Positions 4,487-62,382 of a DNA stretch of 64,000 bases are shown here, one piece after another. The stretch covers positions 67,613 to 131,612 of the forward strand of contig JAJDAJ010000070.1 in assembly GCA_029261925.1 (NCBI GenBank), given 5' to 3'. The stretch's first letter is position 1, and every line of letters starts with the position of its first letter. The translations under genes and the position numbers were made by a program. Source of the stretch: Deltaproteobacteria bacterium (GTDB lineage Bacteria > Myxococcota_A > UBA9160 > SZUA-336). The notes below the pieces were generated by a model. It was not told the DNA's origin, did no database searches, and was given only the letters and a program-made list of their open reading frames with translations.

Positions 4487-4598
4487 GGGCGCCGCCTCGC
4501 AAGCGTGATCGCTCTCACAGCGGCGCAGGCCCACGATCCGATCGAATAGGGGCCCGTTGCCCGGCGGCGACCGTCCGGTGCACGAGGCCGGAGGCCCG

Positions 4599-5993
4599 AT
4601 GGACAGGCAGCGCTCGAATCTCACCGGGGTGCCCCTCGCCCTGCTCGCGGGTCTCGCACTCGCACTGGTGGCCCCGCAGGCACACGCCGCGTGCGGAGAC
4701 GGCCTGGTCCAGGCCGGCGAACAGTGCGACGACGGCAACACGCGAGACACAGACGGCTGCACGGCCAGCTGCGAGACGCAGTCCGGGTACACCTGCGGGG
4801 GCGCGCCGAGCGTGTGCGCGACGAGCGGCCTCAACGTCTACCACATCGGGCACAGCCTGGTGAACGACATGATGCCCGAGATGCTGAGGGACCTGGCGGT
4901 CGATGCGGGCTTCGGACACAGCTACGACAAGCACCGCGTCAGCTCACCTTTCTCGCCGACACTGCGCTTCAAGTGGAACAACCCGACCATCGAGGGCGAC
5001 GGCGACTCGCTGTCGTTCGTCGAGCTCCCGACCGGGAACTACGACGTACTCGTGCTCACCGAGGGCCTGCCGCTCGACGTGGTCGGCGACGAGACCGCGC
5101 TGTACGCGGGCAACTACTACGACATGGCGCTCTCGAGCAACCCGACCGCCCAGGTCTACCTGTACGAGACCTGGTACCGGAACCAGCAGCCCGATCTCGC
5201 GGCGTTCCGCGAGAATACCCTGGCCTGGCGAGCGCAGTGGCAGCAGGTGATCGAGCAGGTGAACGCCGAGCGCGCGGGACCCGACATGCACCTCGTGCCC
5301 GGTGGCGCCGCACTGGTCGCCCTGCTCGATGCGATCGACTCGGAGCCGGACTTCCCTCAGATCGACTCGCTGCTCGATCTGTTCCGCCTGACGCCCCAGG
5401 GTGAGGTGGATCGCATCCACCTCAGCGAGCTGGGTCGCTACTTCATCGCGCTGGTCCATTTCGCGACCCTCTATCGCGAGAGCCCGGTGGGCCTCACGTT
5501 CCAGACAACCGACCGCGACGGCGATCCGTTCGAGGCCCCGAGCCCCGAGCTCGCGCTGCGCATGCAGCAGATCGCCTGGGAGGTCGTGAGCAGCGAGCCG
5601 CTGACGGGCGTCGGCACCGGGCCCGACGGCGACGGGGACGGTGTCGCCGACGCGGTCGACAACTGCCCGGCGGACCCCAACGCCTCGCAGACCGACCGCG
5701 ACGCGGACCTGCTCGGAGACGCCTGCGACCTCTGCCCGGACTTCGCCTCGTCCAACCAGGACACCGACGCCAACGGCATCGGCGACGAGTGCGAGTGCGG
5801 CGATCAGACCGGCGATGGCCGGGTCGACGTCGCGGACATCCTGGCGATCAACGCGGTGATCCTGGGGCAGGCACCGGCCGGCCCGCTGTGCGACGCGAAC
5901 GACGACGGCCTCTGCAACATCGCCGACATCCTGGGCGCGAATGCGAAGATCTTCGGCGCCCCGGCCTTCTGCGCCCGCCATCCCGCCCCCTGA
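4599..5993 (+). CDS. Secreted protein: Myxococcus-type Cys-rich repeat + SGNH-like region + TSP3/dockerin-like C-terminal module
   Basis: ATG 4599 is preceded by GGAGG (4590-4594). The alternative start is TTG 4557. Signal peptide ...LALLAGLALALVAPQAHA. CGDGLVQAGEQCDDGNTRDTDGCTASCETQSGYTCGG matches the TIGR02232-type repeat pattern. C-terminal DGDGDGVADAVDNCP..DRDADLLGDACDLCP..DTDANGIGDECECGDQTGDGRVDVADILAINAVIL..LCDANDDGLCNIADILGANAKIFG..CARHPAP. Confidence 0.8.
   Translation: MDRQRSNLTGVPLALLAGLALALVAPQAHAACGDGLVQAGEQCDDGNTRDTDGCTASCETQSGYTCGGAPSVCATSGLNVYHIGHSLVNDMMPEMLRDLAVDAGFGHSYDKHRVSSPFSPTLRFKWNNPTIEGDGDSLSFVELPTGNYDVLVLTEGLPLDVVGDETALYAGNYYDMALSSNPTAQVYLYETWYRNQQPDLAAFRENTLAWRAQWQQVIEQVNAERAGPDMHLVPGGAALVALLDAIDSEPDFPQIDSLLDLFRLTPQGEVDRIHLSELGRYFIALVHFATLYRESPVGLTFQTTDRDGDPFEAPSPELALRMQQIAWEVVSSEPLTGVGTGPDGDGDGVADAVDNCPADPNASQTDRDADLLGDACDLCPDFASSNQDTDANGIGDECECGDQTGDGRVDVADILAINAVILGQAPAGPLCDANDDGLCNIADILGANAKIFGAPAFCARHPAP
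5622..5993 (+). other. TSP3 + dockerin-like Cys-containing C-terminal module (domain, copy 2, most complete)
   Basis: See CDS 4599..5993. Three TSP3-like loops followed by the double dockerin-like segment. Confidence 0.7.
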
Positions 5994-38091: not shown

Positions 38092-39477
38092 GTGCGTCTA
38101 AGAAAACGCGATCTTCGCGTCCGGGTCAAGGGTTCCTGGCCGATCCGTTTCTCCAGGGAGCAGATTTCCGCCTACGGGGGCCTGGAGTTCTTCCGGCGCT
38201 TCCTGTTCGCCATCGACATGCCGCGGCGGCTGCGCGAAGCGCTCGCGCCCCACGGACTCGACGGCGACTACGGAGCGGCGCGGCTCGCTCTTGCGATCGT
38301 GGCGCTGATCGTGGTCGGGGGGCTGCGCATCAGCCACATTGCCTTCCTGGGCCAGGACCCGGTGGTGCTGCGATTCGTCGGGCTCAAGCGGCTGCCCAGT
38401 GATCGAACACTCGGCCGCTGGCTGGAGCGGTTTTCGAGTCCCGCGCTGCTTTCCCTGGAGATCTTGATCCGCGACCTGGTCTACGAGCAGGTCGAGCGCT
38501 CCAACCTGAACCGATTGACCCTCGATATCGATGGGACCGTCCTGCGCACGGGGGTACGGGTGGAGGGCACGGCGCGTGGCTACAACCCCCACCACCCCAA
38601 GGACAAGTCGTACTACCCCCTGACGGCCCACATCGCCGAGCTCGGCCAGATCCTGCGCGTGCGCAACCGACCCGGAAACGTCAACGACGCACATGGAGCT
38701 GTCGGCTTCCTCCGGGTCATCGTCGAGGAACTGCGCTCGCACTTCGGCGGCCGGATGCCCGTGCGGCTGCGCATGGATGGCGCCTTCTTCACGCCCCAGA
38801 TCCTGCAGTTTCTCGACGATCGAGACGATCTGGGCTGGGCGATGAAGGTGCCGCTGTGGCAGTGGCTGGGGATTCGAGAGGAGATCTCCCGGCGCCACAC
38901 CTGGGTACAGGTCGCACCGGGCATCGAGGGCTTCGTGACGGCCGTGATCTTCGATCGCCCTCGCTGGCCGCAAGCCGTGCCCATCGTGGTCTACCGCAAG
39001 CACGTCTCTCATCGGACTCGCAAGAACTTCCAGCTCGACCTGTTCACGCCCGATGACGGGCACTACGAGTACTCGGCCGTCGCGTCCAACCTCGGGCTCG
39101 GCATCCGGAACCTGTGGAAGTTCATGGCGGGACGAGGCGCCCATGAAAAGACCCTCGGCGATCTCAAGACGCACTTCGCGTTCGACGTGATCCCCAGCCA
39201 GGATCGCCACGCCAATCGCGCCTGGCAGATGCTCAGTGTGCTGACGTTGAACCTGGTGCGCAGCTTCCAGATCCAGCTCGGTGCACCCCGCCGCAAGCAC
39301 ACGGCCAAGTACACCTACCTCTACGAGTTCCAGAGCCTGCGCACGCTCGGCTTCGAGCTCATCCGACTGCCCGCACGGCTGGTCACACCCGCAGGACGTG
39401 CCCAGCTCCGATTTGCGATCCCACCGCCTGCCCGGCGGCGTGTCGAACGCGCCCTGCAACATCTCGAAGCTGCCTGA
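38092..39477 (+). CDS. IS1380-family DDE transposase
   Basis: 461-aa ORF (GTG 38092; TTG 38056 also possible). ISAYGGLEFF..., LTLDIDGTV, ARGYNPHHPKDKSYYPL, NRPGNVNDAHGAVGFL, VRLRMDGAFF and GAHEKTLGDLK fit the IS1380 (PF13701-type) pattern as I remember it. Confidence 0.85.
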   Translation: MRLRKRDLRVRVKGSWPIRFSREQISAYGGLEFFRRFLFAIDMPRRLREALAPHGLDGDYGAARLALAIVALIVVGGLRISHIAFLGQDPVVLRFVGLKRLPSDRTLGRWLERFSSPALLSLEILIRDLVYEQVERSNLNRLTLDIDGTVLRTGVRVEGTARGYNPHHPKDKSYYPLTAHIAELGQILRVRNRPGNVNDAHGAVGFLRVIVEELRSHFGGRMPVRLRMDGAFFTPQILQFLDDRDDLGWAMKVPLWQWLGIREEISRRHTWVQVAPGIEGFVTAVIFDRPRWPQAVPIVVYRKHVSHRTRKNFQLDLFTPDDGHYEYSAVASNLGLGIRNLWKFMAGRGAHEKTLGDLKTHFAFDVIPSQDRHANRAWQMLSVLTLNLVRSFQIQLGAPRRKHTAKYTYLYEFQSLRTLGFELIRLPARLVTPAGRAQLRFAIPPPARRRVERALQHLEAA

Positions 39478-43220: not shown

Positions 43221-44270
43221 TCACGGGATGTAGCGCCGCCGCCGCATCTCGTCGAAGAGCTCGAGCATGCGGTCGCTGGAGTCCAGACAGTCGTGGAATC
43301 CAGCCTGCCGGATCTTGATCGTGCTGGTGTGGATCTCTGGCATTCCGGGGGACAGCCCGGTGTGCTGCCAGCCGACGAGATCATCGAAGTTCACGACGAG
43401 ATCGTGCTTGCGCTCGAGCTCGTCCCAGAGAGGCCGCTTGTCGCGCATGAACAGCTCGAGGTCGAGGAGGACAGGATGACCCGGCTCCACGCGGAAGTAC
43501 CCGGCGATGCGAGGCCACACGTCGGACCAGCGAAAGAGGTCGCCGTTGGTGATGTTGTAGATCACGTTCTCCGAGTGTGACTCGAGCGCTGCCCACACCG
43601 AGCCGCGCGCCAGGAGCCTCGAATCGGTCAGCTGGATGAGGGCATCGAACGTGACAGGTCCGGCCGGAAAATAGAGGGGAAGCCCGAGTGCCTGGCAGAC
43701 CGTCCCGTACACCGCGACGGTGTGCACCAGGTTCACGTAGCTCCCGAAACCGATCCCGGCGATGAAGTCCGGACGCAGGACCGTCGTGGCGAAGCCATCC
43801 TTCGCGCCGCGTCGGTAGAGCAGATCCTCCTGGTCGTAGTAGAACAGCGGGCCGGGGACGCGCGGGTCACTCTCCCGGGCGGGAGACCTCATCGCGCCGA
43901 GCAGTGCACCGTAGGCCTTGCTGCCCTGGTAGATGACGACGCGTCGGAGATCGGCACCGGCCCCGGAGAGCGCGTCGAGCGTGTTCTCCAGGATCGCCAC
44001 GTTGACCCTGATCTCCTCGTAGGGATCCGCCGCGAACTGGAACGCCGCGAAGAACAGGTGCGTGACGTCACCGCATCCGGACATCGCCTCCCGCGTCGCT
44101 CCGGGGTCCTGGAGGTCCACCGAGATGTAGTCCAGCCCCTCGAACGGAGGCCCGGGGCGGCGTCCGAGGGCGGTCAGCTTCCAGTCCGGACGCTCCCTCA
44201 GCTCCTCGGCGAGATTGAAGCCGACGATGCCATGAGCGCCGGTGACGAGCGCGTGGTGCCGTTCCGTCAC
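43221..44270 (-). CDS. Atypical SDR, PRISE-like (progesterone 5-beta-reductase/iridoid synthase-like), paralog 1
   Basis: 349 aa. ALVTGAHGIVG, QGSKAYG, YNITNGDLFRWSDVWPRIAGYF. Paralogous to CDS 61285..62382. Confidence 0.8.
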   Translation of the reverse strand: MTERHHALVTGAHGIVGFNLAEELRERPDWKLTALGRRPGPPFEGLDYISVDLQDPGATREAMSGCGDVTHLFFAAFQFAADPYEEIRVNVAILENTLDALSGAGADLRRVVIYQGSKAYGALLGAMRSPARESDPRVPGPLFYYDQEDLLYRRGAKDGFATTVLRPDFIAGIGFGSYVNLVHTVAVYGTVCQALGLPLYFPAGPVTFDALIQLTDSRLLARGSVWAALESHSENVIYNITNGDLFRWSDVWPRIAGYFRVEPGHPVLLDLELFMRDKRPLWDELERKHDLVVNFDDLVGWQHTGLSPGMPEIHTSTIKIRQAGFHDCLDSSDRMLELFDEMRRRRYIP

Positions 44271-49818: not shown

Positions 49819-51401
49819 GCTCCGCATCCACGAGCCAGATCGCATTCACCGGCGGCCGGATCCTCAGCATGGATCCGCGGTATCCCGACCCCGCGATCGC
49901 GATCGTCGAGGACGGTCGCGTCTCGGCCCTGGGTCCGCGCGACATGCTCGCCGCCTTCCCCGCGGCGCGGGTTCACGATCTGCGCGGGCGGACGCTGCTC
50001 CCCGGCTTCATCGACGCCCACAATCACCTCTGCATCGCGGCGCTCCACCCCGTCTGGGCGGACCTGTCACAGGTGAGCAGCGAGGAGGAGCTGCTCGGGG
50101 CGCTGGCCGAGCAGGCTGCGCGCGAGCCCGGGGCGCGCTGGGTCCGCGGGATCGGCTGGAACGAGACGACCACCGGACTGCAGCCCGACCGCGCCCTGCT
50201 CGACCGGCTCGGACTCGACCGTCCCGTGATCGTGGCGCACTACTCGCTGCACCAGTGCGTCGTGAGTTCGCTCGGTCTCGACGAGCTCGGGATCGGCAGG
50301 ACGGCGCCGGACCCGCCCGGCGGCGTCATCGACCGTGATGCCCGTGGGGCCCCCACGGGTCTCCTGATCGAGCGCGCCTGGAGCGAGGCGCACGCCCGTT
50401 CGCTGGCGGAGTACCACGACGGGGATCGATGGGCCGAGCTCGTGGCCCGGCGGGCACGCGTGCTGCTCGCCGATGGGATCACGTGCGTGCACGACGCCGC
50501 GTGCCCGCCCTCCGCCGAGGCGCTGTACTTCGGGATGGCGCGCGAGGGCACGCTGCCGATCTCCGTGCTCACGATGCCTCACCCGGAGGCCCTGCTGATG
50601 CCCCTGTCCGCGGCGCGTCTCGAGGGGCCCCTGACCGGAGAGGGGGACGAGCGGGTTCGCGTCGGCCCCATCAAGCTGTTCGCCGACGGCGGCGTGATGC
50701 CGGCGATCGATACCTCCGTCAACGGTCAGCGCTTTCAGAGCGGTGCGTGCTTCGCGGACCTCGAGGACGGCGTGCTCCTGGCCCATTCCCGGGGCTTCCG
50801 GGTCGCGGTGCACGCCATCGGCAACCGGGGACTCGCCGCCGCCCTCGACGCGTTCGCCCGTGCGGCCCGCACGCGCGCCAGCGTAGATCCGCGCTTCCGG
50901 GTCGAGCATGCCTCGCTCGCGTCGCAGGTGCAGATGCGCACCATGGCCGAGCTCGGCGTGGTCGGCGTCGTGCAGCCGGGCTTCCTGCACCACATGGGCC
51001 AGGCCATCGAGCAGGTCGCCTTCGACGGCGATCCGTGGATGCCCTTCGGCGACATGGCCCGCGCGGGCGTTCCGCTGGCCGCCTCGTCCGACGACCCGTG
51101 CACGTTCCACGAGCCGCTGCGCACGTCGGCGCACGGTGCAACGCGCATCACCGGATCCGGAGGGGTGCTCGATCCGGAGCAGTCGCTCGAGTACGTGGAC
51201 TGGCTGCGGGCCTACACCTCGGGCGCCGCCTGGGCCGGCGGGCAGGAGGACGAGCGTGGCTCCCTCTCCCCGGGCAAGCGGGCCGACCTGGTCGTGCTCG
51301 AGGGCGAGCTCGATCCCGCCCATCCCCCCGTCGTCGCCGAGACCTGGGTCGAGGGGGAGCAGGTCTTCGAGCGTCCGGTTCCGGGAAGCACCGGGGCCTG
51401 A
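49815..51401 (+). CDS. Amidohydrolase (Amidohydro_3 / YtcJ-like)
   Basis: ATG 49815. LLPGFIDAHNHL (HxH), VAVHAIGNRG, FRVEHAS, AASSDDP, ADLVVL. Confidence 0.85.
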   Translation: MSSASTSQIAFTGGRILSMDPRYPDPAIAIVEDGRVSALGPRDMLAAFPAARVHDLRGRTLLPGFIDAHNHLCIAALHPVWADLSQVSSEEELLGALAEQAAREPGARWVRGIGWNETTTGLQPDRALLDRLGLDRPVIVAHYSLHQCVVSSLGLDELGIGRTAPDPPGGVIDRDARGAPTGLLIERAWSEAHARSLAEYHDGDRWAELVARRARVLLADGITCVHDAACPPSAEALYFGMAREGTLPISVLTMPHPEALLMPLSAARLEGPLTGEGDERVRVGPIKLFADGGVMPAIDTSVNGQRFQSGACFADLEDGVLLAHSRGFRVAVHAIGNRGLAAALDAFARAARTRASVDPRFRVEHASLASQVQMRTMAELGVVGVVQPGFLHHMGQAIEQVAFDGDPWMPFGDMARAGVPLAASSDDPCTFHEPLRTSAHGATRITGSGGVLDPEQSLEYVDWLRAYTSGAAWAGGQEDERGSLSPGKRADLVVLEGELDPAHPPVVAETWVEGEQVFERPVPGSTGA

Positions 51402-51465
51402 ACGGCGCCGATGCGTGACGCGGCACGCGACACCAGAAGCGGGGCCCATGGCCCCGGGAGGCTGC

Positions 51466-53379
51466 ATGTCTGAACAGGTACCCCTGCATCCGCTCGAGCC
51501 GCTGCGCCCCGACGAGATCTCCCGCGCGTCGCGGATCCTCCGGGAGAGCGAGCGCATCGGCGACGGCGCCCGCTTCTGCTGGATGGCCCTGCACGAGCCG
51601 GAGAAGGAGGCGCTCGCCGCCTTCGAGAGCCGCGGCGCCGCGGTGGACCGGCAGGCACGGATCATGGTCTTCGACCGCGAGGGCGAGGGAAGCCTCGACG
51701 CGATCGTCTCGCTGTCCGGAGGGAAGGTGCTCTCCTGCACGCGCGCCCCGGACGGACACGTCGCGCTCTCCTTCGCCGACATGATCCGGGTGATCCAGCT
51801 CGTGAAGGCGGACCCCGCCTGGCAGGCCGCCATCCGCAGGCGCGGGATCGAGGACCTCGACAGCGTCCAGGTGGATCCATGGGTGACCGGCGGGTTCGAG
51901 CCGGAGGAGCGCCGGGGCGCCCGCATGATGCGGGCGCTCTCGTATCGCCGCGACTTCGCAGCGGACAACGGGTACGCGCACCCGATCGAGGGGGTCGTGG
52001 CCCTGGTAGATCTCAGCGCCGACGAGGTGGTCGAGGTCCTGGATCACGGCGTCACGCCGTTCCCCCCGGGGCACGGGAACTACGCTGCCGAGGATGTCGA
52101 CGGCTTCCGGAAGGACCTCAGACCTCTCGAGATCACCCAGCCCGAGGGCCCGAGCTTCGATGTGCTGGGCAACGAGATCCGCTGGCAGAAGTGGCGCTTC
52201 CGGACCTCGCTGCATCCGGTGCACGGGCTGGTGCTGCACACCGTCAGCTATCGCGATGGCGACCGCGAGCGCAGGATCCTGCACCGTGCCGCGCTGGCCG
52301 AGATGGTCGTCCCCTACGGCGATCCCGGTCCCATGCACTACTGGAAGAGCGTCTTCGACGCGGGCGAGATGGGGATCGGACAGTTCACGAACTCCCTGGT
52401 CCTGGGCTGCGACTGTCTCGGGGAGATCCGGTACTTCGACGTGTCGCTCTGTGGCCCGCAGGGCGATCCCTTCACGATCTCGAAGGGCATCTGTCTCCAC
52501 GAGGAGGACTTCGGGATCCTCTGGAAGCACACGGATCTCGCATCCCGATCCACGCAGGTCCGCCGCTCCCGGCGTCTCGTGGTCAGCGCGATCCACACGG
52601 TGGGCAACTACGACTACGGCTTCTTCTGGTACTTCTACCAGGACGGCACGCTACAGATGGAGGTCAAGCTGACCGGCATCCTGCAGACCTCGGCGGTCGC
52701 GCCGGGCGAGCAGCCCCCCTGCGCTCCCCTGGTCGCGCCACAGCTCGCCGCGCCGGTCCACCAGCACCTGTTCAACGTGCGCCTCGACTTCGACCTGGAC
52801 GGCCGGAAGAACTCGGTCTACGAGGTCGATGCCGTGCGTCTGCCCGACCCGGAGAATCCCGCCGGCAATGCGTTCGCCGCGCGCGCCACGCTGCTGGGCC
52901 GGGAACGCGAGGCACGGCGCGACATCGATCCCTCGGCGAGCCGCTACTGGAAGATCGTCAATCCGGAGGTGAGCAACGCCACGGGCCAGCCCGTGGGCTA
53001 CAAGCTCGTTCCCGGGAACGCGCCGACGCTGCTGGCGCATCCCGACTCGAAGGTGGCCCGCCGGGCCGCGTTCGCCACGCACAACCTGTGGGTGACGGCG
53101 TACGATCCATCCCAGCTGTCCGCTGCCGGCGACTTCCCGAACCAGCACCCGGGCGGAGCGGGGCTCCCCGAATACTCTGCTGCGGACCGTCCCCTCGAGA
53201 ACACCGACGTGGTCGTCTGGTACAGCTTCGGCGTCACCCACATCCCGGTTCCCGAGCACTGGCCCGTGATGCCCGTCGAGTACGCCGGCTTCACGCTCCA
53301 TCCCGCGGGCTTCTTCGATCGAAACCCCGCCCTCGACGTCGCACCCAGCAGCGCGTGTCATTCGCCAGAGAGCGACTGA
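51466..53379 (+). CDS. Copper-containing primary amine oxidase (topaquinone enzyme)
   Basis: ATG 51466 with GGGAGG upstream, 637 aa. TPQ consensus TVGNYDYGFFWYF. Cu ligands VHQHLF and the C-terminal VTHIP region. No signal peptide. Confidence 0.9.
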   Translation: MSEQVPLHPLEPLRPDEISRASRILRESERIGDGARFCWMALHEPEKEALAAFESRGAAVDRQARIMVFDREGEGSLDAIVSLSGGKVLSCTRAPDGHVALSFADMIRVIQLVKADPAWQAAIRRRGIEDLDSVQVDPWVTGGFEPEERRGARMMRALSYRRDFAADNGYAHPIEGVVALVDLSADEVVEVLDHGVTPFPPGHGNYAAEDVDGFRKDLRPLEITQPEGPSFDVLGNEIRWQKWRFRTSLHPVHGLVLHTVSYRDGDRERRILHRAALAEMVVPYGDPGPMHYWKSVFDAGEMGIGQFTNSLVLGCDCLGEIRYFDVSLCGPQGDPFTISKGICLHEEDFGILWKHTDLASRSTQVRRSRRLVVSAIHTVGNYDYGFFWYFYQDGTLQMEVKLTGILQTSAVAPGEQPPCAPLVAPQLAAPVHQHLFNVRLDFDLDGRKNSVYEVDAVRLPDPENPAGNAFAARATLLGREREARRDIDPSASRYWKIVNPEVSNATGQPVGYKLVPGNAPTLLAHPDSKVARRAAFATHNLWVTAYDPSQLSAAGDFPNQHPGGAGLPEYSAADRPLENTDVVVWYSFGVTHIPVPEHWPVMPVEYAGFTLHPAGFFDRNPALDVAPSSACHSPESD

Positions 53380-53385
53380 CGGGGA

Positions 53386-53410
53386 CCGGAAGGAAACTGG
53401 CGCGCCCGCA
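53386..53410. repeat. Distal copy of 25-bp direct repeat (partial tRNA-Arg 3' end; att-like)
   Basis: CCGGAAGGAAACTGGCGCGCCCGCA is identical to 61081-61105. Confidence 0.75.
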
Positions 53411-53417
53411 ACGGAGC

Positions 53418-54296
53418 ATGAGCTCCAGCCTCGCATGGAGGAGGACAGTGCACCGGTCGCCCCAGTACACGGCCCACCGGGGCTCGGTCCGCCGCTATAT
53501 TCGCTCACGCGTGGTGGAACACCCCTTCTCAGACATTGACTCCCAGCCGGATCCGTCGGCCTGGCTGGAGTGCCTCGACACGACTCGCCAGGAGCCGTTC
53601 CACCAGCGCTACAAGCAGCTCTTGCTGGAGATGCTCCGGGTTCGTCCGGGCGGTCGCTACCTGGATGTCGGTTGCGGGACGGGCGACGACGCCCGGGCCC
53701 TGGGCGACAGGGGAGCATCCGCGGTAGGCATCGATCTCGCCCGCACGATGACGGCCGAGAGCCGGAGGCGGGGGCTCTCCATGGTGGTGCAGGGAGATGC
53801 CGCCGCTCTGCCCTTCGAGTCCTCCACCTTTGATGGCACGTGGGCCGATCAAACATTCCAGCATCTCGCGGATCCACACCTGGCCCTGACGGAGCTGATC
53901 CGCGTCGTACGGCCAGGCGCTCGGGTGGCCGTCGCAGATCCCGACTACAGCACGCAGTCCATGAACTTTCCTGACCGCGAGCTCGCACGCCAAGTGTTCC
54001 AGTTCCGGGCATTCCACGCGCTCCGAAACGGGACCCTCGCCCACACCATGGACGCCGAGTTCAGGAAGGCCGGTCTTGTGGATGTTGAATCTCGAAAGGA
54101 ACGACTGGACGTCCGCGATCCGAGAACCGTGGACCACGTGATGGGCTTGCGCTCCTGGGCCTCTGCTGCCGGCAAGCGCGGCCTGATGTCATCCGCCCAG
54201 GTGAAGCTATGGGAACAGCTCTACGACGAGATGGCGGCCTCCACAAGGTTTCGCTGGTCGGTCTCGTTCTATCTGACGGCGGGCTCGAAGCGCTAG
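53418..54296 (+). CDS. Class I SAM-dependent methyltransferase (Methyltransf_11-like)
   Basis: YLDVGCGTGDDARAL (motif I), FDGTWADQTFQHLADP, VRPGARVAVADPD. Start uncertain (ATG 53418 or GTG 53511). Confidence 0.75.
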   Translation: MSSSLAWRRTVHRSPQYTAHRGSVRRYIRSRVVEHPFSDIDSQPDPSAWLECLDTTRQEPFHQRYKQLLLEMLRVRPGGRYLDVGCGTGDDARALGDRGASAVGIDLARTMTAESRRRGLSMVVQGDAAALPFESSTFDGTWADQTFQHLADPHLALTELIRVVRPGARVAVADPDYSTQSMNFPDRELARQVFQFRAFHALRNGTLAHTMDAEFRKAGLVDVESRKERLDVRDPRTVDHVMGLRSWASAAGKRGLMSSAQVKLWEQLYDEMAASTRFRWSVSFYLTAGSKR

Positions 54297-54300
54297 AGGG

Positions 54301-54501
54301 CAGGCGGCGGGCGAGCACGGGGCGCGTGTTCTCGAAGGAGACGCGTACGGCGGGGGTCCGCGCCACGAGCCGGACGACCGCGAAGCCGCCTCCGCTGGGA
54401 ACCGGATCCGCCACGGTCCCGGGCCGCTGCAGCGCGAACGCCGTGCTCAGGATCTCGGCCGGCACCCCGGGGCTGTTGCGCTCGAGCCAGCCGCCGCCGG
54501 A
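54301..54501 (-). pseudogene. Remnant of a parvulin-type PPIase domain (C-terminal half only)
   Basis: The minus-strand translation SGGGWLERNSPGVPAEILSTAFALQRPGTVADPVPSGGGFAVVRLVARTPAVRVSFENTRPVLARRL parallels the pattern GGDLGWF.RG.MVPEFE.AAF.L..GE.S.PV.T.FGYHII...R....SFEEV. No N-terminal half and no plausible start. Confidence 0.4.
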
Positions 54502-54622
54502 GATCGGCTTTCCATCCCTGATGGGCCAGCGCGCGCCCCTTTCCCGGGTGCGATCAGCGGCGCGCGCTATATCTTGAGTCCGGCACCCGACACCGTTTCG
54601 CGTGCCACGAAGGGGGGGTGAG

Positions 54623-54970
54623 ATGGATTGGTACCTTGCCGCGCTGCGCAAGTACGCGGAGTTCAGCGGCCGGTCCCGGCGGACCGAGTATTGGATGTTC
54701 GTTCTCGTCTACGTGATCATTCTCGTGGTGCTCGCGCTGATCGAGGGCGCGCTGGGCATGCCCGGTGTCGTCTCCGGGCTTTTCCAGCTCGCGATGCTCG
54801 TCCCCGCCCTGGCGGTCGGCGCCCGGCGGCTCCATGACACGGGACGCAGCGGCTGGTGGCAGCTGATCAGCCTGATTCCGCTGATCGGCGCAGTCGTGCT
54901 CATCGTCTTCTTCGTGCAGGACAGCCAACCGGGCGACAACGGGTACGGGGCGAACCCGAAGGGCGGGTAG
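54623..54970 (+). CDS. DUF805 (YhaH/YhaI-like) inner-membrane protein
   Basis: ATG 54623. YAEFSGRSRRTEYWMFVL, ARRLHDTGRSGWWQLISLIPLIGAVVLIVFF, NGYGANP. Confidence 0.8.
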   Translation: MDWYLAALRKYAEFSGRSRRTEYWMFVLVYVIILVVLALIEGALGMPGVVSGLFQLAMLVPALAVGARRLHDTGRSGWWQLISLIPLIGAVVLIVFFVQDSQPGDNGYGANPKGG

Positions 54971-54974
54971 GCTC

Positions 54975-55200
54975 GGCAGTGAGTCGCGGGCGGTCCAACC
55001 AGGCGTTGGACCGGACCGGCAACAGCTCGGGGGTCCGGGGTCCCTGCGGGCGCGCCCCGTCCTCGGTGCGATACTGCACGACGAAGGTCTTGACGCCGGT
55101 CCGCTTGACGCGAACGCCGAAGCCACCCGAACAGACGAACACGTCACCGGTCGGGATTCGGCTTGGTGGCGTCGAGTCCGGCTCCCAGCGGATCGTCCGT
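54975..55200 (-). pseudogene. Frameshifted N-terminal remnant of a P4-type tyrosine integrase (arm-binding/DUF4102-like region)
   Basis: Minus strand. ...LDATKPNPDR-stop sits in one frame. GDVFVCSGGFGVRVKRTGVKTFVVQYRTEDGARP..PELLPV sits in the adjacent frame. This compares with the integrase pattern AKP..K.Y.L.DGGGL.LRV.PSGSK.W.FRYR..GK....LG.YPE.SL. The catalytic domain is absent; the DUF805 gene starts where it should continue. Confidence 0.5.
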
Positions 55201-55628
55201 TACCCGACCGGCCTCTAGCCACGCGCCGACCTCGAGCAGGCGCCCGGATCGGCACGCCCGTACGACGTCCGCGAGCTCATCCTCACTGTCGGCGAGGCGA
55301 CGCTCGGGCCCCGATAGGGCAGCGCGCACGATGCCTCGATCGATGCCCAGCTTGTCACGGTTGCGCACCTCGCCTTGGCAGGCGTTGGCGGGCCTGGGGC
55401 GGAATCAGCCCATCGGGGAGACAAGGAAGCCCCGGCGACCCTCGGGTGACCCGGCGGCCCCCGGATCGGCTAGGGCCGCGACCCGTAGAACGATTGTGTT
55501 CGGAGCGCCCTGATCGGACCTCAGATGCCCCTGGAGAGCCCCTCGACGTGGGGTGCGTCGACGGCAGCTGATCCGTTGGCACCAGCTGGCGTGATATCGT
55601 GGGACGGGGGTCGTCGGAGGGAGATCCT

Positions 55629-58600
55629 GTGCGATCTTATGGGCTTGGCCTGGCTCTCTGGCTCTCTGGATTCTTGATCGCTCCTGCTGCGCTGGGACTG
55701 GAGCTCGTTGAGGAAGTCGCTCCGCCCGGGCAACCGGGATCGCCCGGTGCCGCAGGCGAGGACGGAACCGACGGAACCAACGGCGAGGACGCTGATCTCC
55801 AGACGACGGCGACCGGCCTGGATCCGGAAGTCTTTTTCCGCGTCATCGGGGGCGACGGTGGAGCGGGCGGTCAAGGCGGTAGCAGCCAGGGGCTAGGCGT
55901 CCGTGGTGGTGCCGGAGGCTCGGGCGGCGACGGGGGTGATGCCGCGGCCACTTGCCTTGCCACCGATGCGGACTTCGAAAGCGTTCGACTTCATGCGACC
56001 GGCGGGGACGGCGGCGCCGCAGGTTTCGGGGGTGGGACGTTCTCTGACCGCGGACCCCCGGGGAGTTCGGGTGATGGCGGCAGTGCCCAGGCCGATCTCG
56101 AAGTGAGCAGCACGTCGGCGGACCCGGTCGCCATCGAGGTATTCGCGATGGGCGGCCGCAGCTCTGGGAGCTCCACGCCCGCCAGCGGAGGGGATGGGCG
56201 AGCACATCTCGACGCCACGGCGGTCGGGACCGAGCTAGATGCCTGGGTCATCTCCACCGGAGGTGGAGGCTCCTCGGGGGCAACAGCGCCGGACGGCACG
56301 CGGGCAGATGGCGGCCCCGGGGGCTCTGCCGACGCGACAGCGACTCTCGCTGGCCTCGGAGACGCCCGGGTTGTTCTGATTCTGCAAAGCGAGGGAGGAC
56401 AGGGTAGCACCGCGGCGCGAGCGGGCGCCGCGGGAGCGGCATCCGCAAGCGTCGTTGGATCCTCCGAGGCCGGAGACATCGACCTCAGCTTGCGGGTTGA
56501 AGGTGGCGACGCAGCGGGGTCCCTCGACTCCCAGGACGATCCCGATGCGGGCGCAGCGACAGCTCATGTGGAAGCGGCTTCCTCTGAAGGGGGCGACGTG
56601 GACATCTACGTCGTGGCGGTCGGTGGGCGCGGCGGACGACTGACCGGCCCGACCGGCACTGCGGGAAGTGGTGGGGCGACCGAGGTGACCGCCACTGGCA
56701 GCTCGACGACCGGGGATGTCTCCGTGTACATCGAACAGCTCGGTGGCGCTGGCGCCGCAGGCGCTGGCGGAGCCACGGCCGGCTCCGGTGCGGACTCGGT
56801 GCTGGAGGACGCGGCCTCCGGATCCACGGCAGGCACGCTTTTCCTCGAGCAGAGGGCAGAGGGTGGCCGGGGAGGAGAATCGGACGATCAGGCTCGCTTC
56901 GGATCGGCCGGCTCCGGTATCAGTCGACTGCACACATCTAATGCCGGTGGCGGCGACATCGTGGCACGGGCCATCGCGACGGGCGGGGATGGTGCGCGCA
57001 AGGACCCCAATAGCTCGGCCCCGACGGGGGGCGCCGGAGGCGTTGCCGAGGCCGAGGTCGTCGCGAGCGGCAGCGGAGACGTCACGATACTTGCCTCAGC
57101 CCACGGCGGCCGAGGAGGGACCGGCGTGAACTCCCCGAATGAAGAGTGGGGAAGCGGTGGAGCTGCGCGTCTGGGTCGCGTCTACGGATCTTCAGACGGC
57201 GGCGGTGAGGTCTCCGTGGTCGGCGAGCTGGCGCACGGCGCGGGAGGAGGAGGTGGGCCTGATGCGATCCTCGTGAACGCTGTTGACGGCGACACGACTG
57301 GACGGCTGTCGCTTGAGCAGATTGCTCATGCTGGCCCCCAATTTGAACTCCGCACAGGTGGTGACCTTCAGGGAGACGCGGGGAACAGCACTAGCGCCCT
57401 CGACGTGAGCAAGAGCGTGGAGCACCTGATGGTGCGTACGGAGGCAATCGCCGGGGTGACGGGTAGCGGTGCACCAGGCGTCGCGGAATCCACTGCTCGT
57501 GCGTTCAATGACGCGGGAAGTGTGCAGGTTCTCGCCGAGGCGACGGGCGGGGAGCGCTTCGGGAGCGAAGGGACTGAGAGCGCGGGGGCAGCCTTCGTAG
57601 AATCGCACGCGCGAACCACGGGCGACGATCACACGATCTGGATCGGGGCGCCGCCCGATCAGGACCCCTCCTTGCATGGTGCGTTTGGCGGAGCCGCCAC
57701 GGGTGAGGCGGGAAGCGCGGGAGACGCCACGAGCTCGTCGCAGGGGATCGCTGAGGGAGACTCGGAGGTCGTTGTCTGGGACCTGGCCTTCGGTGGCAGG
57801 TTCAGGCGAGACGAGAGCTCCGGCGCCGAGCTCGTCACCGGCGGCGATGCATCGTCGACAGCCATCGGAATCAACGCGGGCTCCAGTCCGGTCAGCGTTC
57901 ACGCGGAGGCCACCGGAGGGGGCCACCCCAACCCTGGATTCCTCGTCAGCCCCGGGAGTGAGGGCGGAGCCCACGGCGGAAATGCGAGCGCCGTCGCACA
58001 CGGCGAGTCGTCCTCGGGAGCAGTCACGGTCGAGGCCGTTACCCGCGGCGGTAGCGGAGAACGCGGTGTGCCTGCGAACGGAGGAGGAGGCGACGGAGCG
58101 GACGTGGTCGCGATCGACTCGGTGTCGGGCCGCACGACCGGCTCGCTGACGCTCGTGCAGCGCGCGCAGGGAGGCGAAGGGGGCTGGGGGATTGCCCGGA
58201 CCCACCTGAGCGAGAGCGCCGACGGAGGAGACGGCGGAGCGGCTCGTTCGGAGCTCATCCCGGACAACGATCGGGGCGGAGCCCTCGTCGCGACCGTCGG
58301 GGCCGTGGGAGGCAACGGCGGCCGCGGGTTCGGGGAGGGTCGCGCGGGACGCGGCGGCGATGCGGCCGGCTCCGTGGTGATCCGGGATTCGCCCGCAAGT
58401 GCGATCGACCTGATCCTGGAGATTCGCGGAGGAGCGGGCGGCGAGGTCCGCGATGGACGGAGCGGAAGCGCGGGGGATGGCGGCATGGCCGCGGTGGGAG
58501 AGGTCTTCGCGTCTTCGGCGCTCGGCGCTCCCATCAGCATCGACCTGCTCGTGAGTCCCGGTCAAGGAGGAGACGCCACCGGCGATGCCCCAGCCGGCAG

Positions 58601-60920
58601 CGGCTGGGACGCCGTCCTGGACAACGCGATCGACGGGGAGACCACAGGATCGCTGAGCCTGCGGCAGGTCGCGCGGGCGAGTCGCAGTGGACTCGCCGAA
58701 GCGGGCGCCCGGGGTCGGGCAGGTCGAGCTTCGAGCCACCTCTCGAAGTCGGGGAGCTTCGACTCTCTCACCCTCGAGGCCATCGCGCAGGGCGGCTCGT
58801 TCGGAGGCCCCGGCAGCAGCGCCACGGCCGAGGCCGTCGTGGATGCGCTCAACGATGCCGGCGCCGTGGTGGCTGTGGGCGAAGCAACGGGAGGCGTGTT
58901 CGGAACTGCGAGCAGTGCCGTGACGGCTCGCTCGACGGCTCCAGGAGCGCCGGTCACGGCTACGGGTCGCGGGATCGGCGGCTCTTCGGGTGCTGGAGAC
59001 TCATCCCTGAGCCGTGGCATGGATGCGACGAGCGAGACCACGGCCATCTCGGAAGCCGGGGGTGACGTTACGGTCACCGATGTCGCCTACGCAGGTGGAG
59101 GGACCAGCGATGGCCGACCCGGGGGAAATGCATCTTCCCGGGCTCTCGGACAGACCACCGGCACCGGAACAGTCGAGGTGTCCGCAAGTGCCCGTGCCGG
59201 AAGCGGGCTATCGGGCGGATCGAGCGGCGCTACCGGTACCGTGTCCGTGGAGGCCCGGGGCGAGTCGGAACTCGGGGACGTGAGCGTCACGGCAGCGGCC
59301 GACTTCAATCGGCCGGGCTTCGGTGACTCGGGCCCCGGGCCGGCGCCGGTGGCGATCCTCGAGGATGTCGTCACCGGCCGCACAGGAGGGCATCTGACGC
59401 TGCGACAGATCGCCGACGCCTTCAGCGCGGCACCGCGCGACGGCTCGGATCGCGGCCGCGCCGAGTCGATCCTCCACGGCACCAATCCCGGCGGCGGAGC
59501 CATCACGGCCATCGCCGAGGTCAGGACCGCATCGAGAGAGGTCGATACGAGAGCGCTGGTGGAATCGTCCAGCTCCACGGCCGCCGCGACGGCCGTCGGG
59601 GTTGCCTGGGGCGGGCCCCTCGCCGAGGTGTTTGCGACGGCTCGGACCGTGGGAGACGATCACCCCGTAACCGTGGGTCTCGCCGAGGGCCCGGGAGAGC
59701 CCACTCCCGGCGCATGGCCGCGGGTCGGAGCATGGGGCGGGAGCTCGAACTTCGGTGAAGCCCCAGGTGACGCACGAAGCCGCTCCGAGGGCGTCGCCGG
59801 GGGTCACAGCGCCGTGTCCGTGTACGACTACGCCGTCGGCGGCAGCGGTCAACGGAACGATGGTGGCTCCGGCGAGTCCGTCGCGCTGGCCACGGGAAAC
59901 GGAGCCCCGGTGCTTGCCAGCGCCACCGCCGCGGGGGGCTGGGCCGGGAGCACCCTGTTCAGTCGCGAGTTCTCCTACGGCTTCAGTCGGCCCCCATTGG
60001 ACCCGGTTCCGCTCGGTGGAACCGCACGCGCGAGATCGGATGCCAGCGGGACCGGCCAGGTCGACGCGCGCGCGGTCGCGACCGGTGGAATCGGCAGCGA
60101 CAGGGACCCTCTGGTGTTCCCCGAGCTCGATGACACCCCGGCGGTCGTGGCCTTCGCGGTCGGCGAAGGCGGAGACGCGATCTCTTCCGCGACCGCGCAG
60201 GGTGCGACCGGGAGTGCCGTAGCGCGCAGCATCACACAAGGTGGCCAGGCCGGTTGGATCGAGGCCAGCGCGAGCGCCTGGTTCCACGATGGCGAAGCGA
60301 CGGGGGCGGCCGCGGTCGGCGTGGCTGGGGGGCCGCTTGCCGACTTGCCCGCTGGCGCCGCGGCGATCTCGGCAGCTCGCCTTCGTCCGGCGCCAAGTGA
60401 GCCTGGCGCTTCCACGCTGACGATCGCATCCGGGACCCTGGGCGCCGGCTTCGGCGGCGGGGGCAACGAAGGTGTCCAGAGGACCGAAGCTCGGGCCTCG
60501 GTAGAGTTCCACGCCGCCGTGACATCCGGGAGGTCGGATCTGTTGCTGGAGTTCAACGATCCGATCGTGGGCCCGGACGGATTCGACGAGCTGGTGATCC
60601 GCGTTCTCGATGACGTCGGGACCATCATGCAGATGCGTTTCGACGACGAGGAGCAGGCGAACCTGTTTCTTCGTGGGTCGACAATAGATGTAGGCAACGT
60701 CTTCCCACCGGAGCTCATGGAGACGCCACCGTTCGGATTCGAGCGCCTCGTGCCCGAGCTGTTCGCTCTGACCGTGATTGTGGAGGTGCTCGGGATCCAC
60801 AGCCAAGCAACGGGACTCACTACGGAGTTTCGCCTCATTCAGGCCGCCGCAGTACCAGAACCTCGCGCCTGGGCCCTGTTCGCGATCGCAATTGCGGTGC
60901 TCGTCCTTCGACCGAGGTGA
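55629..60920 (+). CDS. Giant glycine-rich repetitive surface protein with PEP-CTERM anchor
   Basis: GTG 55629 is preceded by GGAGGGAG (the ORF opens at 55599), ~1763 aa. Signal-like LGLALWLSGFLIAPAALG. Short collagen-like GXY run. Hundreds of GG-rich beta-helix-like segments. A recurring ...D.V.G.TTG.L.L.Q.A... motif occurs 5 times. C-terminal AAAVPEPRAWALFAIAIAVLVLRPR. Confidence 0.8.
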   Translation: MRSYGLGLALWLSGFLIAPAALGLELVEEVAPPGQPGSPGAAGEDGTDGTNGEDADLQTTATGLDPEVFFRVIGGDGGAGGQGGSSQGLGVRGGAGGSGGDGGDAAATCLATDADFESVRLHATGGDGGAAGFGGGTFSDRGPPGSSGDGGSAQADLEVSSTSADPVAIEVFAMGGRSSGSSTPASGGDGRAHLDATAVGTELDAWVISTGGGGSSGATAPDGTRADGGPGGSADATATLAGLGDARVVLILQSEGGQGSTAARAGAAGAASASVVGSSEAGDIDLSLRVEGGDAAGSLDSQDDPDAGAATAHVEAASSEGGDVDIYVVAVGGRGGRLTGPTGTAGSGGATEVTATGSSTTGDVSVYIEQLGGAGAAGAGGATAGSGADSVLEDAASGSTAGTLFLEQRAEGGRGGESDDQARFGSAGSGISRLHTSNAGGGDIVARAIATGGDGARKDPNSSAPTGGAGGVAEAEVVASGSGDVTILASAHGGRGGTGVNSPNEEWGSGGAARLGRVYGSSDGGGEVSVVGELAHGAGGGGGPDAILVNAVDGDTTGRLSLEQIAHAGPQFELRTGGDLQGDAGNSTSALDVSKSVEHLMVRTEAIAGVTGSGAPGVAESTARAFNDAGSVQVLAEATGGERFGSEGTESAGAAFVESHARTTGDDHTIWIGAPPDQDPSLHGAFGGAATGEAGSAGDATSSSQGIAEGDSEVVVWDLAFGGRFRRDESSGAELVTGGDASSTAIGINAGSSPVSVHAEATGGGHPNPGFLVSPGSEGGAHGGNASAVAHGESSSGAVTVEAVTRGGSGERGVPANGGGGDGADVVAIDSVSGRTTGSLTLVQRAQGGEGGWGIARTHLSESADGGDGGAARSELIPDNDRGGALVATVGAVGGNGGRGFGEGRAGRGGDAAGSVVIRDSPASAIDLILEIRGGAGGEVRDGRSGSAGDGGMAAVGEVFASSALGAPISIDLLVSPGQGGDATGDAPAGSGWDAVLDNAIDGETTGSLSLRQVARASRSGLAEAGARGRAGRASSHLSKSGSFDSLTLEAIAQGGSFGGPGSSATAEAVVDALNDAGAVVAVGEATGGVFGTASSAVTARSTAPGAPVTATGRGIGGSSGAGDSSLSRGMDATSETTAISEAGGDVTVTDVAYAGGGTSDGRPGGNASSRALGQTTGTGTVEVSASARAGSGLSGGSSGATGTVSVEARGESELGDVSVTAAADFNRPGFGDSGPGPAPVAILEDVVTGRTGGHLTLRQIADAFSAAPRDGSDRGRAESILHGTNPGGGAITAIAEVRTASREVDTRALVESSSSTAAATAVGVAWGGPLAEVFATARTVGDDHPVTVGLAEGPGEPTPGAWPRVGAWGGSSNFGEAPGDARSRSEGVAGGHSAVSVYDYAVGGSGQRNDGGSGESVALATGNGAPVLASATAAGGWAGSTLFSREFSYGFSRPPLDPVPLGGTARARSDASGTGQVDARAVATGGIGSDRDPLVFPELDDTPAVVAFAVGEGGDAISSATAQGATGSAVARSITQGGQAGWIEASASAWFHDGEATGAAAVGVAGGPLADLPAGAAAISAARLRPAPSEPGASTLTIASGTLGAGFGGGGNEGVQRTEARASVEFHAAVTSGRSDLLLEFNDPIVGPDGFDELVIRVLDDVGTIMQMRFDDEEQANLFLRGSTIDVGNVFPPELMETPPFGFERLVPELFALTVIVEVLGIHSQATGLTTEFRLIQAAAVPEPRAWALFAIAIAVLVLRPR

Positions 60921-61080
60921 CCCGATGCTGACCCGAGCCTCGGGAATCTTACCCAAGAGCTTGGAACGGCTCTGGAAACGCGGATTAGCCACCTGATCGG
61001 CCCTCTCCGACAGCATCAGCATCTTGTAGAGCAGTGCTTCGCCGAATAGTTCCCATGTCCGGGAGCTGGCTCGCAACTAC

Positions 61081-61105
61081 CCGGAAGGAAACTGGCGCGC
61101 CCGCA
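61081..61105. repeat. Proximal copy of 25-bp direct repeat (last 13 nt of tRNA-Arg + 12 nt downstream)
   Basis: Identical to 53386-53410. Confidence 0.75.
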
Positions 61106-61169
61106 GGGACTCGAACCCCGAACCCCCTGATCCGAAGTCAGGTGCTCTATCCAATTGAGCTACGGGCGC
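61093..61169 (-). tRNA. tRNA-Arg (anticodon TCG), CCA encoded
   Basis: Reverse complement folded by hand: GCGCCCG TA GCTC AATTGGATA GAGC A CCTGA CTTCGGA TCAGG GGGTT CGGGG TTCGAGT CCCTG CGGGCGC G CCA. 77 nt, all four stems pair (one G-U), U33 present, anticodon TCG. Confidence 0.9.
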
Positions 61170-61284: not shown

Positions 61285-62382
61285 ATGGCGCGCAACAAGG
61301 CCCTGGTCGTGGGGGCGCTGGGCCTGGTGGGGCGAGCCACGGTGGAGCACCTGGAGACGCTCGAGGACTGGGACGTGGTCGGTGCGTCGCGGCGGAAGCC
61401 GGACGGGGAGTCGTCCACGCCCTTCCTCTCCTTCGATGCGCGCGACCGCGCGGCCTGCGAGGCGCAGCTCGGGGAGCTCCGGGACGTGACGCACCTGGTG
61501 TACACGGCGCTGTACGAGGCGCCGCGCCTGGGTGCGGGCTGGGTGGATCCGGCGCACGCCGAGATCAACCTGGAGATGCTGCGCAACGTGGTCGAGGTGC
61601 TCGATCAGGCCTCGCCCCTGCGACACGTCACGGTCCTGCAGGGAACGAAGGCGTACGGTGTGCACCACGGACCGCCGGCGCGAACGCCGTGCAAGGAGCG
61701 CGAGCCGCGCTACCTGCCACCCAACTTCTACTACGCGCAGGAGGACTTGCTGCGCGAGCGCGCGCGAACGCGCGACTGGAGCTGGACGGCGCTGCGGCCG
61801 CAGCTCGTGTGCGGCTTCGCGCTGGGCAGCCCCAACAACGGCGTCGCGGTGCTCGGGGTGTACGCCGAGATCTGCCGGGAGCTCGGCCTGCCGCTGCGCT
61901 GCCCGGGCGCCTCGGGGCGCATCCTGGAGGCGACCGACGCGCGGCTGCTTGCCCGGGCGGCGGTCTGGGCCGGGACCACGCCGGCGTGCGCGGGCGAGGC
62001 CTACAACATCACCAACGGCGACGTCTTCACCTGGCCCGACCTCTGGCCGCGGATCGCGGACTTCTTCGGAATGGAGGCCGGCCCGCTGCATCCGATCCCC
62101 TTCGAGGTCGTCATGGCCGACAAGCAGCCGCTCTGGGATCGCATCGTCGAGAAGCACGGCCTGCGCTACGGCATGCGGGAGCTGGTGCCGAGCTGGGAGT
62201 TCGCCGACATGATCTTCGCGACCGGCGTGCACCCGTCGCTGGGCGCGAGCGCGGCGACGCCTTCGATCCTGGTGAGCACGATCAAGGCGCGGCAGCACGG
62301 CTTCGCCGACTGCCTCGACACCGAGGACATGCTGATCGAGTGGCTCGAGGAGCACCGCCGGCGCGGCGCCCTGCCCGGCTAA
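61285..62382 (+). CDS. Atypical SDR, PRISE-like, paralog 2
   Basis: ATG 61285 with GGGAGG upstream. ALVVGALGLVG, QGTKAYG, YNITNGDVFTWPDLWPRIADFF. Collinear with CDS 43221..44270. Confidence 0.8.
   Translation: MARNKALVVGALGLVGRATVEHLETLEDWDVVGASRRKPDGESSTPFLSFDARDRAACEAQLGELRDVTHLVYTALYEAPRLGAGWVDPAHAEINLEMLRNVVEVLDQASPLRHVTVLQGTKAYGVHHGPPARTPCKEREPRYLPPNFYYAQEDLLRERARTRDWSWTALRPQLVCGFALGSPNNGVAVLGVYAEICRELGLPLRCPGASGRILEATDARLLARAAVWAGTTPACAGEAYNITNGDVFTWPDLWPRIADFFGMEAGPLHPIPFEVVMADKQPLWDRIVEKHGLRYGMRELVPSWEFADMIFATGVHPSLGASAATPSILVSTIKARQHGFADCLDTEDMLIEWLEEHRRRGALPG

Follow-up and report, generated by a model that had tools for sequence, protein, structure and literature searches.

A decayed, probably composite island bounded by a 25-bp repeat at the 3′ end of a tRNA-Arg(TCG) gene in an uncultured Deltaproteobacteria bacterium

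We characterized a 7.7-kb stretch of DNA (positions 53411-61080) within a window of 64,000 nucleotides (nt) from contig JAJDAJ010000070.1 of a Deltaproteobacteria bacterium (assembly GCA_029261925.1); all positions given here are those of the window. The stretch lies between two copies of a 25-bp direct repeat, one of which overlaps the 3′ end of a tRNA-Arg(TCG) gene, and it is an ordinary, decayed, probably composite tRNA-borne island that lacks an integrase, is flanked by attachment (att) sites and resembles a cis-mobilizable element (CIME). Its origin is likely to have been an integrase-mediated insertion at the 3′ end of the tRNA-Arg(TCG) gene, followed by decay. Four observations carry this explanation, namely the repeat with its geometry, the foreign codon usage of the enclosed genes, a remnant of an integrase and a difference between strains; from them we infer the insertion event and the order of the events after it.

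The 25-mer (CCGGAAGGAAACTGGCGCGCCCGCA) occurs exactly twice on the plus strand of the window, as a first-pass annotation made from the sequence alone had reported. The two copies are equal at 25 of 25 positions, and the identity breaks off sharply at either edge. The same annotation had named dispersal of the 25-mer through the genome as a finding that would speak against an island; within the 64-kb window there is no third copy even with three mismatches allowed, and on neither strand did a scan for at least 17 of 25 matches detect a degenerate copy close to the island. Chance is excluded, since 100 dinucleotide-preserving shuffles give an expectation of 0.00 matches and the 64 kb contain one other exact direct repeat of at least 25 nt, a run of 32 nt common to two adjacent paralogous genes. 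The 25-mer had no exact match in JGI metagenome contigs or IMG/VR, and the tRNA 3′ 25-mer had no match in IMG/VR. The tRNA-Arg(TCG) gene is the sole tRNA gene that ARAGORN detects in the window; it matches the full-length Rfam model and is intact, with a complete 7-bp acceptor stem and an encoded CCA. Scans with Rfam and for promoters and terminators brought up no further feature besides this gene. Read in the direction of the tRNA, the right-hand copy of the repeat consists of the last 13 nt of the gene including CCA (TGCGGGCGCGCCA) and a trailer of 12 nt past its end (GTTTCCTTCCGG), which agrees with the earlier description. The left-hand copy starts 6 nt past the stop codon of a copper amine oxidase gene (53377-53379) and ends 7 nt before the ATG of a methyltransferase gene, and the tRNA fragment within it (53398-53410) lies downstream of tRNA-Arg in direct orientation. 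A direct 3′ fragment of a tRNA gene (tDNA) downstream of the intact tRNA gene is the signature used for mapping tDNA islands (PMC4383910), and the asymmetric 3′ end of a tDNA is among the recognised classes of att site (bioRxiv 10.1101/2020.11.02.365908, summarising Williams 2002). A transposon-type insertion was also considered and was rejected, since no terminal inverted repeats are present at the island ends.

The window comes from a metagenome-assembled contig, and its encoded proteins trace to one NCBI contig of 204,162 nt, which raises the question of whether the repeat could be an assembly chimera or a chance match. Both are refuted, the latter by the shuffles and the former by independent Logan assemblies of public metagenomes from two studies, a biofilm study and P2, and we regard this reading as next to impossible. 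The left junction is contained in single contigs of runs X1-X4, which come from both studies, and the right junction in a 2.7-kb contig of X1 and a 151-nt contig of X7, with no differences in the junction region. Because independent assemblies reproduce both junctions, an assembly artefact is ruled out. The whole island is present in the biofilm-study runs X1, X4, X7 and X16.

Codon usage sets the enclosed genes apart from their surroundings. The GC content at third codon positions (GC3) is 0.91 ± 0.04 in 35 other genes of the window and is host-typical in the two flanking genes (0.89 in the amine oxidase gene and 0.95 in the PRISE-type dehydrogenase gene), as compared with 0.79 in the methyltransferase gene, 0.74 in a giant gene for a glycine-rich secreted protein and 0.87 in a DUF805 gene. 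Synonymous-codon likelihoods, conditioned on amino-acid composition and with the 64-kb window alone as reference, gave z-scores of -5.3 for the methyltransferase gene, -6.1 for the giant gene and a marginal -2.4 for the DUF805 gene. At gene resolution, the shift in codon usage coincides with the two copies of the repeat.

The island also holds a remnant of a tyrosine integrase in the orientation of tRNA-Arg. When a 50-residue fragment was compared with 7.3 Gb of plasmid sequence by tblastn, five matches were obtained, and all three that fell on annotated features were N-termini of site-specific integrases or arm-domain proteins. In pairwise comparisons with the whole window, residues 30-56 of a Ruegeria integrase aligned to 55124-55044 with 63% identity (E 1.3e-5), and residues 31-53 of a Sphingopyxis integrase aligned within the same interval with 61% identity (E 2e-4). 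Because these tblastn and pairwise matches hit integrase N-termini, the remnant is, as judged by homology, probably a real and exclusively N-terminal piece of an integrase that is oriented like the tRNA. A frameshifted continuation to approximately 54950 might tentatively be read, and a word-index protein search with the read-through integrase fragment returned nothing. Within the remnant, TGCGGGCGCGCCC at 55045-55057 is identical at 12 of 13 positions, in inverted orientation, to the 3′ end of the tRNA; this is at chance level, approximately one such match being expected in a GC-rich window.

On this evidence, we propose that a mobile element with a tyrosine integrase would have entered the 3′ end of the tRNA-Arg(TCG) gene by site-specific recombination, with the crossover within the 25 bp common to element and chromosome, i.e., at the "asymmetric 3′-end" sublocation. 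The tRNA gene would have been regenerated because the shared 25 bp contain its last 13 nt and the 12-nt trailer, and its old 3′ end would have been moved 7.7 kb away, beside the amine oxidase gene. The empty site would accordingly be expected to read ...GAGCGACTGACGGGGA, the 25-mer, GGGACTCGAACC... Decay of the element, which is indicated by the gene fragments that lie inside the island, would then have reduced the integrase to an N-terminal remnant of approximately 27-80 amino acids with frameshifts and truncated a parvulin gene, the DUF805 gene now lying between the parvulin and integrase fragments. Left over would be an att-flanked island with a methyltransferase, a DUF805 protein and a giant PEP-CTERM surface protein, in which the giant gene and the rest of the tRNA-proximal module probably represent a separate addition or exchange. 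The features on which this model rests are collected in Table 1.

Table 1. Features of the island and its flanks, in window positions.
Feature	Position	Strand	Basis or remark
Copper amine oxidase gene, complete, left flank	51400..53379	+	Pfam Cu_amine_oxid E 2.6e-157, model positions 2-407 of 407
Distal 25-mer, attR-like, displaced tRNA 3′ fragment	53386..53410		Repeat scan
Class I S-adenosylmethionine-dependent methyltransferase gene, apparently intact	53418..54296	+	Pfam Methyltransf_11 E 7.6e-21
Parvulin (PpiC-type) prolyl isomerase pseudogene, C-terminal half of the domain	54322..54528	-	Pfam Rotamase_2, model positions 54-120 of 121 only, E 4.9e-7
DUF805 small membrane protein gene, intact	54602..54970	+	Pfam DUF805 E 8e-32
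Tyrosine-integrase N-terminal arm-type DNA-binding remnant	55044..55124	-	Pfam Arm-DNA-bind_3 E 0.002
Strain breakpoint	55526..55527		Contigs of X3 and X11 leave the window sequence exactly after 55526
Open reading frame for a 1773-residue secreted glycine-rich protein, varies between strains	55599..60920	+	Signal peptide, PEP-CTERM-like tail
Spacer of 160 nt with lower GC (0.63-0.64)	60921..61080		Between giant gene and att copy
tRNA-proximal 25-mer, attL-like	61081..61105		Repeat scan; holds the 8-bp palindrome GGCGCGCC
tRNA-Arg, anticodon TCG, intact, putative integration target	61093..61169	-	ARAGORN; Rfam 68.5 bits
PRISE-type short-chain dehydrogenase gene, right flank, followed by a major facilitator superfamily (MFS) transporter gene	61285..62382	+	Pfam PRISE

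The reading of the repeats as attL and attR, which the first-pass annotation had already put forward, is supported by the geometry, by a codon shift that is confined to the enclosed genes and by the N-terminal integrase remnant. Several observations weigh against it. The remnant scores 18.7 bits against Arm-DNA-bind_3, below the gathering cut-off of 27, and lies approximately 5.9 kb from the tRNA gene, which a classical integrase gene would adjoin. The Phage_integrase catalytic domain (R-H-R-Y) is absent from a six-frame Pfam scan of 53380-55700 and 60850-61095, and some 27 residues of the arm domain are left. A check by GC content and codon usage had been suggested as well, of which the codon half came out as expected (GC3 of 0.74-0.79 vs. 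0.91) and the other did not, the overall GC content of the island being indistinct from that of its surroundings. Most importantly, an empty attB, in which the amine oxidase gene would adjoin tRNA-Arg, was not found in any collection searched. The best match of the amine oxidase gene in metagenome contigs (L090, 74% identical) is followed by a convergent gene instead of a tRNA gene, and an amine oxidase gene with approximately 89% DNA identity in runs X2 and X5 runs on into other sequence. Finally, trailers shared with the tRNA-Arg genes of other organisms, together with a likeness beyond the repeat, would fit either a related element in such an organism or native DNA, as described next.

Parts of the 12-nt trailer recur on contigs of runs X3 and X11 that carry tRNA-Arg genes of other organisms from the same samples: a 2.8-kb contig has 10 of the 12 nt in common, and several carry CCGGAAG 4-5 nt downstream of the tRNA. 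Accordingly, the part of the repeat formed by the trailer resembles native sequence of a tRNA locus, as would be expected for an attB. In one of the other organisms, the flank resembles the island-proximal side of the window (61066-61092) at 16 of 21 positions (p ~0.004). This likeness, which extends approximately 13 nt past the repeat, could stem from a related element in that organism.

As for the search for relatives, in the nearest that are available, the products of the flanking genes are only approximately 74% identical in amino acids, and the gene order is different. Among GTDB species genomes, the best match of the amine oxidase has 58% identity, and no match has a tRNA-Arg(TCG) gene nearby. 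On the other side, relatives with approximately 74-84% identical PRISE, MFS and luciferase proteins keep the rightward PRISE-MFS-luciferase order; to the left of PRISE, they have neither the tRNA gene nor the island, an amidohydrolase gene lying there in the relatives with approximately 74% identity, and other PRISE relatives differ on both sides. Synteny thus breaks exactly at the tRNA gene, which is consistent with a hotspot of insertion. Among the contigs of public runs that were compared with both junctions, none skips the island and none contains a circular junction, rare variants being dropped from contigs.

The failure to find an empty site, the unremarkable overall GC content and the recurrence of CTTCCGG, or of 10 of the 12 trailer nt, after the tRNA-Arg genes of other organisms, which marks it as native-type sequence, would all be accommodated if the gene block were ancestral and the repeat had arisen without an integrase, either by local duplication of the tRNA end and its trailer or as the relic of some other element since lost. 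We consider this very unlikely. The enclosed genes deviate strongly in codon usage, the boundaries of the deviation are those of the repeat, and an integrase remnant lies inside. Moreover, target duplications of the transposon type are far shorter than 25 bp, the island ends lack terminal inverted repeats, and no process other than recombinase action is known that would place a direct copy of just 25 bp from the 3′ end of a tRNA gene at a distance of 7.7 kb.

Insertion by an integrase thus remains the preferred explanation, but the first-pass view of the island as one fixed unit is too strong in view of the comparison between strains. In the P2 runs X2, X3, X5, X6 and X11, positions 53205-55526 are represented at approximately 99.5% identity, with approximately 11 substitutions and two small indels, and all strain-level variants carry the left junction. 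At the breakpoint listed in Table 1, contigs of X3 and X11 continue into an alternative sequence that is absent from the window. None of the sampled 31-mers of 55600-61080 was present in the P2 runs, despite left-junction shares of 0.61-0.94 and PRISE-side shares of 0.13-0.40. In a P2 sample, a 200-nt contig with approximately 90% identity to 60604-60655 may come from a divergent allele. The tRNA-proximal giant-gene module therefore differs between strains that are otherwise nearly identical.

These observations open the possibility, to which we would give somewhat less than an even chance, that the distal 2.1 kb (53411 to ~55526) represent an old, decayed element and the tRNA-proximal 5.5 kb a separate, later module. 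Two routes could have led to such an arrangement: either the regenerated att site received a second insertion, and the middle att copy was lost together with its integrase, or homologous recombination replaced one variable surface-protein allele by another; in either case, it would refine the insertion model without excluding it. That the block is composite is suggested by the strain-variable module, which exactly separates the integrase remnant from the tRNA gene, and by the occurrence of gene fragments among intact genes. In addition, the remnant faces away from the tRNA gene, as in the classical layout, and the accretion of elements in tandem has been well documented for att sites in tDNA (PMC5704250). 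On the other hand, no middle att copy is present (the best candidate near 55500 has 9 of 14 positions, and none reaches 17 of 25), and the methyltransferase and giant genes are similarly atypical in codon usage. The strain comparison itself is based on a coverage of the P2 strain of approximately 4-6x and on approximately 64% of the contigs, and the divergent 200-nt contig is not assignable to the P2 strain.

The description of the island as fixed is likewise not established, because both att copies are perfect and excision in trans is possible. By analogy with CIMEs, a matching integrase, supplied by an incoming element or by a gene at another place in the genome, might still excise or move the block. 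CIMEs are decayed integrative elements that have kept attL and attR and lost the genes for integration and transfer (PMC5704250), a definition that two sites of 25 bp with 100% identity and a missing integrase would fit, and the variation of the tRNA-proximal module would fit as well. We nevertheless regard continued mobility as unlikely, given that no excised or empty form appeared in the assemblies examined, in which contigs drop rare variants, and that no cognate integrase is encoded in the 64-kb window. It is also conceivable, if quite improbable, that the tRNA-Arg att site is an active point of exchange, at which an integrase from elsewhere swaps allele cassettes of the giant PEP-CTERM gene beside the old, integrase-less remnant. 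Were this the case, closely related strains would have different cell surfaces.

The island can be compared with several known systems. As in the tDNA islands of the Islander collection (Hudson, Lau and Williams 2015, PMC4383910), an intact tRNA gene and a displaced direct 3′ fragment bracket foreign genes, a length of 7.7 kb is plausible, and a composition unlike that of the host, which Islander looks for, is seen in the codon usage of the methyltransferase and giant genes. Unlike in those islands, no integrase gene lies between the tDNA and its fragment, so that the island fails the integrase filter of Islander, and a BLAST search for tDNA fragments would probably overlook a repeat with only 13 nt of tRNA. 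With CIMEs, the island shares perfect att copies, an integrase that is a mere remnant, a lack of detected transfer genes and signs of accretion or exchange at the tRNA-proximal end; it is unlike them in that CIMEs were defined in Streptococcus from elements derived from integrative and conjugative (ICE) or integrative and mobilizable elements (IME), while nothing in the island points to a conjugative ancestry.

Arm-DNA-bind_3 integrases are said to cross over mostly in the T-loop and to leave repeats with approximately 20 nt or more of tRNA. The P4-like islands with Arm-DNA-bind_3 (DUF4102) integrases at tRNA 3′ ends are similar to the present island in that the remnant fits the GFGxRVxxxGxKxFxxxYR strand region (residues 30-56) and has the tRNA orientation, but in the present case the identity takes in only the last 13 nt of the tRNA and the 12 nt after it, as in the asymmetric 3′-end class, and the remnant is not beside the tRNA gene. 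In comparison with PEP-CTERM/exosortase proteins, the giant protein has the expected signal peptide, VPEP motif, hydrophobic stretch and basic tail, and its homologues have canonical tails, but its own tail stays below the Pfam threshold.

The giant protein contains 20% glycine and begins with an N-terminal signal peptide; its C-terminus, with VPEP, a hydrophobic stretch and a basic tail, reads VPEPRAWALFAIAIAVLVLRPR and matches the PEP-CTERM model with an E-value of 0.06 (13.9 bits, cut-off 20.7). An exhaustive HMMER search recovered 122 relatives, the nearest of which is 53% identical. Several of the relatives have a comparable signal-peptide N-terminus, and three (P0155, P0183 and P0235) end in canonical PEP-CTERM tails. 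A word-index search with the C-terminal 424 residues returned nothing, and comparison of the protein with itself by BLASTP revealed no significant internal repeats. In the source record, the giant gene starts at an internal GTG, at residue 334, and encodes 1440 amino acids, so that positions 55599-56597 of the window are skipped. The full frame of 1773 residues opens with a signal peptide and resembles its homologues at the N-terminus, which makes it probable that the public annotation is truncated.

The remaining genes of the island agree with the first-pass gene list, all five calls of which (methyltransferase, parvulin fragment, DUF805, integrase N-terminal fragment and giant PEP-CTERM protein) were verified; the Pfam gene scan covered the genes between 38 and 64 kb. 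Against NCBIfam, the methyltransferase gave sub-threshold matches only. Its ATG lies 38 nt past the stop codon of the amine oxidase gene, on the same strand and with the att copy in between, and it may be read through from this host gene. The DUF805 protein also matches PHROG 12855, a family of membrane-protein morons (E 5e-22). A related strain has a 1-nt deletion at 54619, and because this would break the version that starts with GTG, the real start of the protein is probably the ATG at 54623, ahead of which lies a purine-rich stretch (GAAGGGGGG). No relaxase or transfer gene was detected in the parts of the island outside the giant gene (53380-55700 and 60850-61095; Pfam in six frames and PHROG). 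The spacer between the giant gene and the att copy occupies the usual place of an integrase gene and yielded no match to Pfam, PHROG or Rfam, whichever frame was read. Exact look-ups of the window proteins left most without a record.

For annotation, these results mean that 53411-61080 can be treated as horizontally acquired DNA in an uncultured and poorly sampled lineage. The insertion would explain why genes for a methyltransferase, a DUF805 protein and a giant surface protein interrupt a neighbourhood of catabolic genes, and the case illustrates that an overlap of 13 nt with the tRNA gene is sufficient to identify an integrase-less island that would go unnoticed by standard island finders. 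Differences between strains in the giant PEP-CTERM module, in turn, point to variation of the cell surface.

Three further observations concern other parts of the window. A DDE transposase gene (38092-39477; DDE_Tnp_1_4, E 4.7e-29) opens a stretch at 38-45 kb in which GC3 (0.83-0.88) is below that of the rest of the window and which may likewise have been acquired. A second PRISE-type dehydrogenase paralogue (43221-44270, minus strand), approximately 34% identical to the PRISE proteins of the relatives, lies among ABM, SnoaL and P450 genes. The 32-nt exact direct repeat mentioned above (4271-4302 and 5778-5809) lies in the paralogous genes 3170-4486 and 4557-5993, and gene conversion is a possible cause of it.

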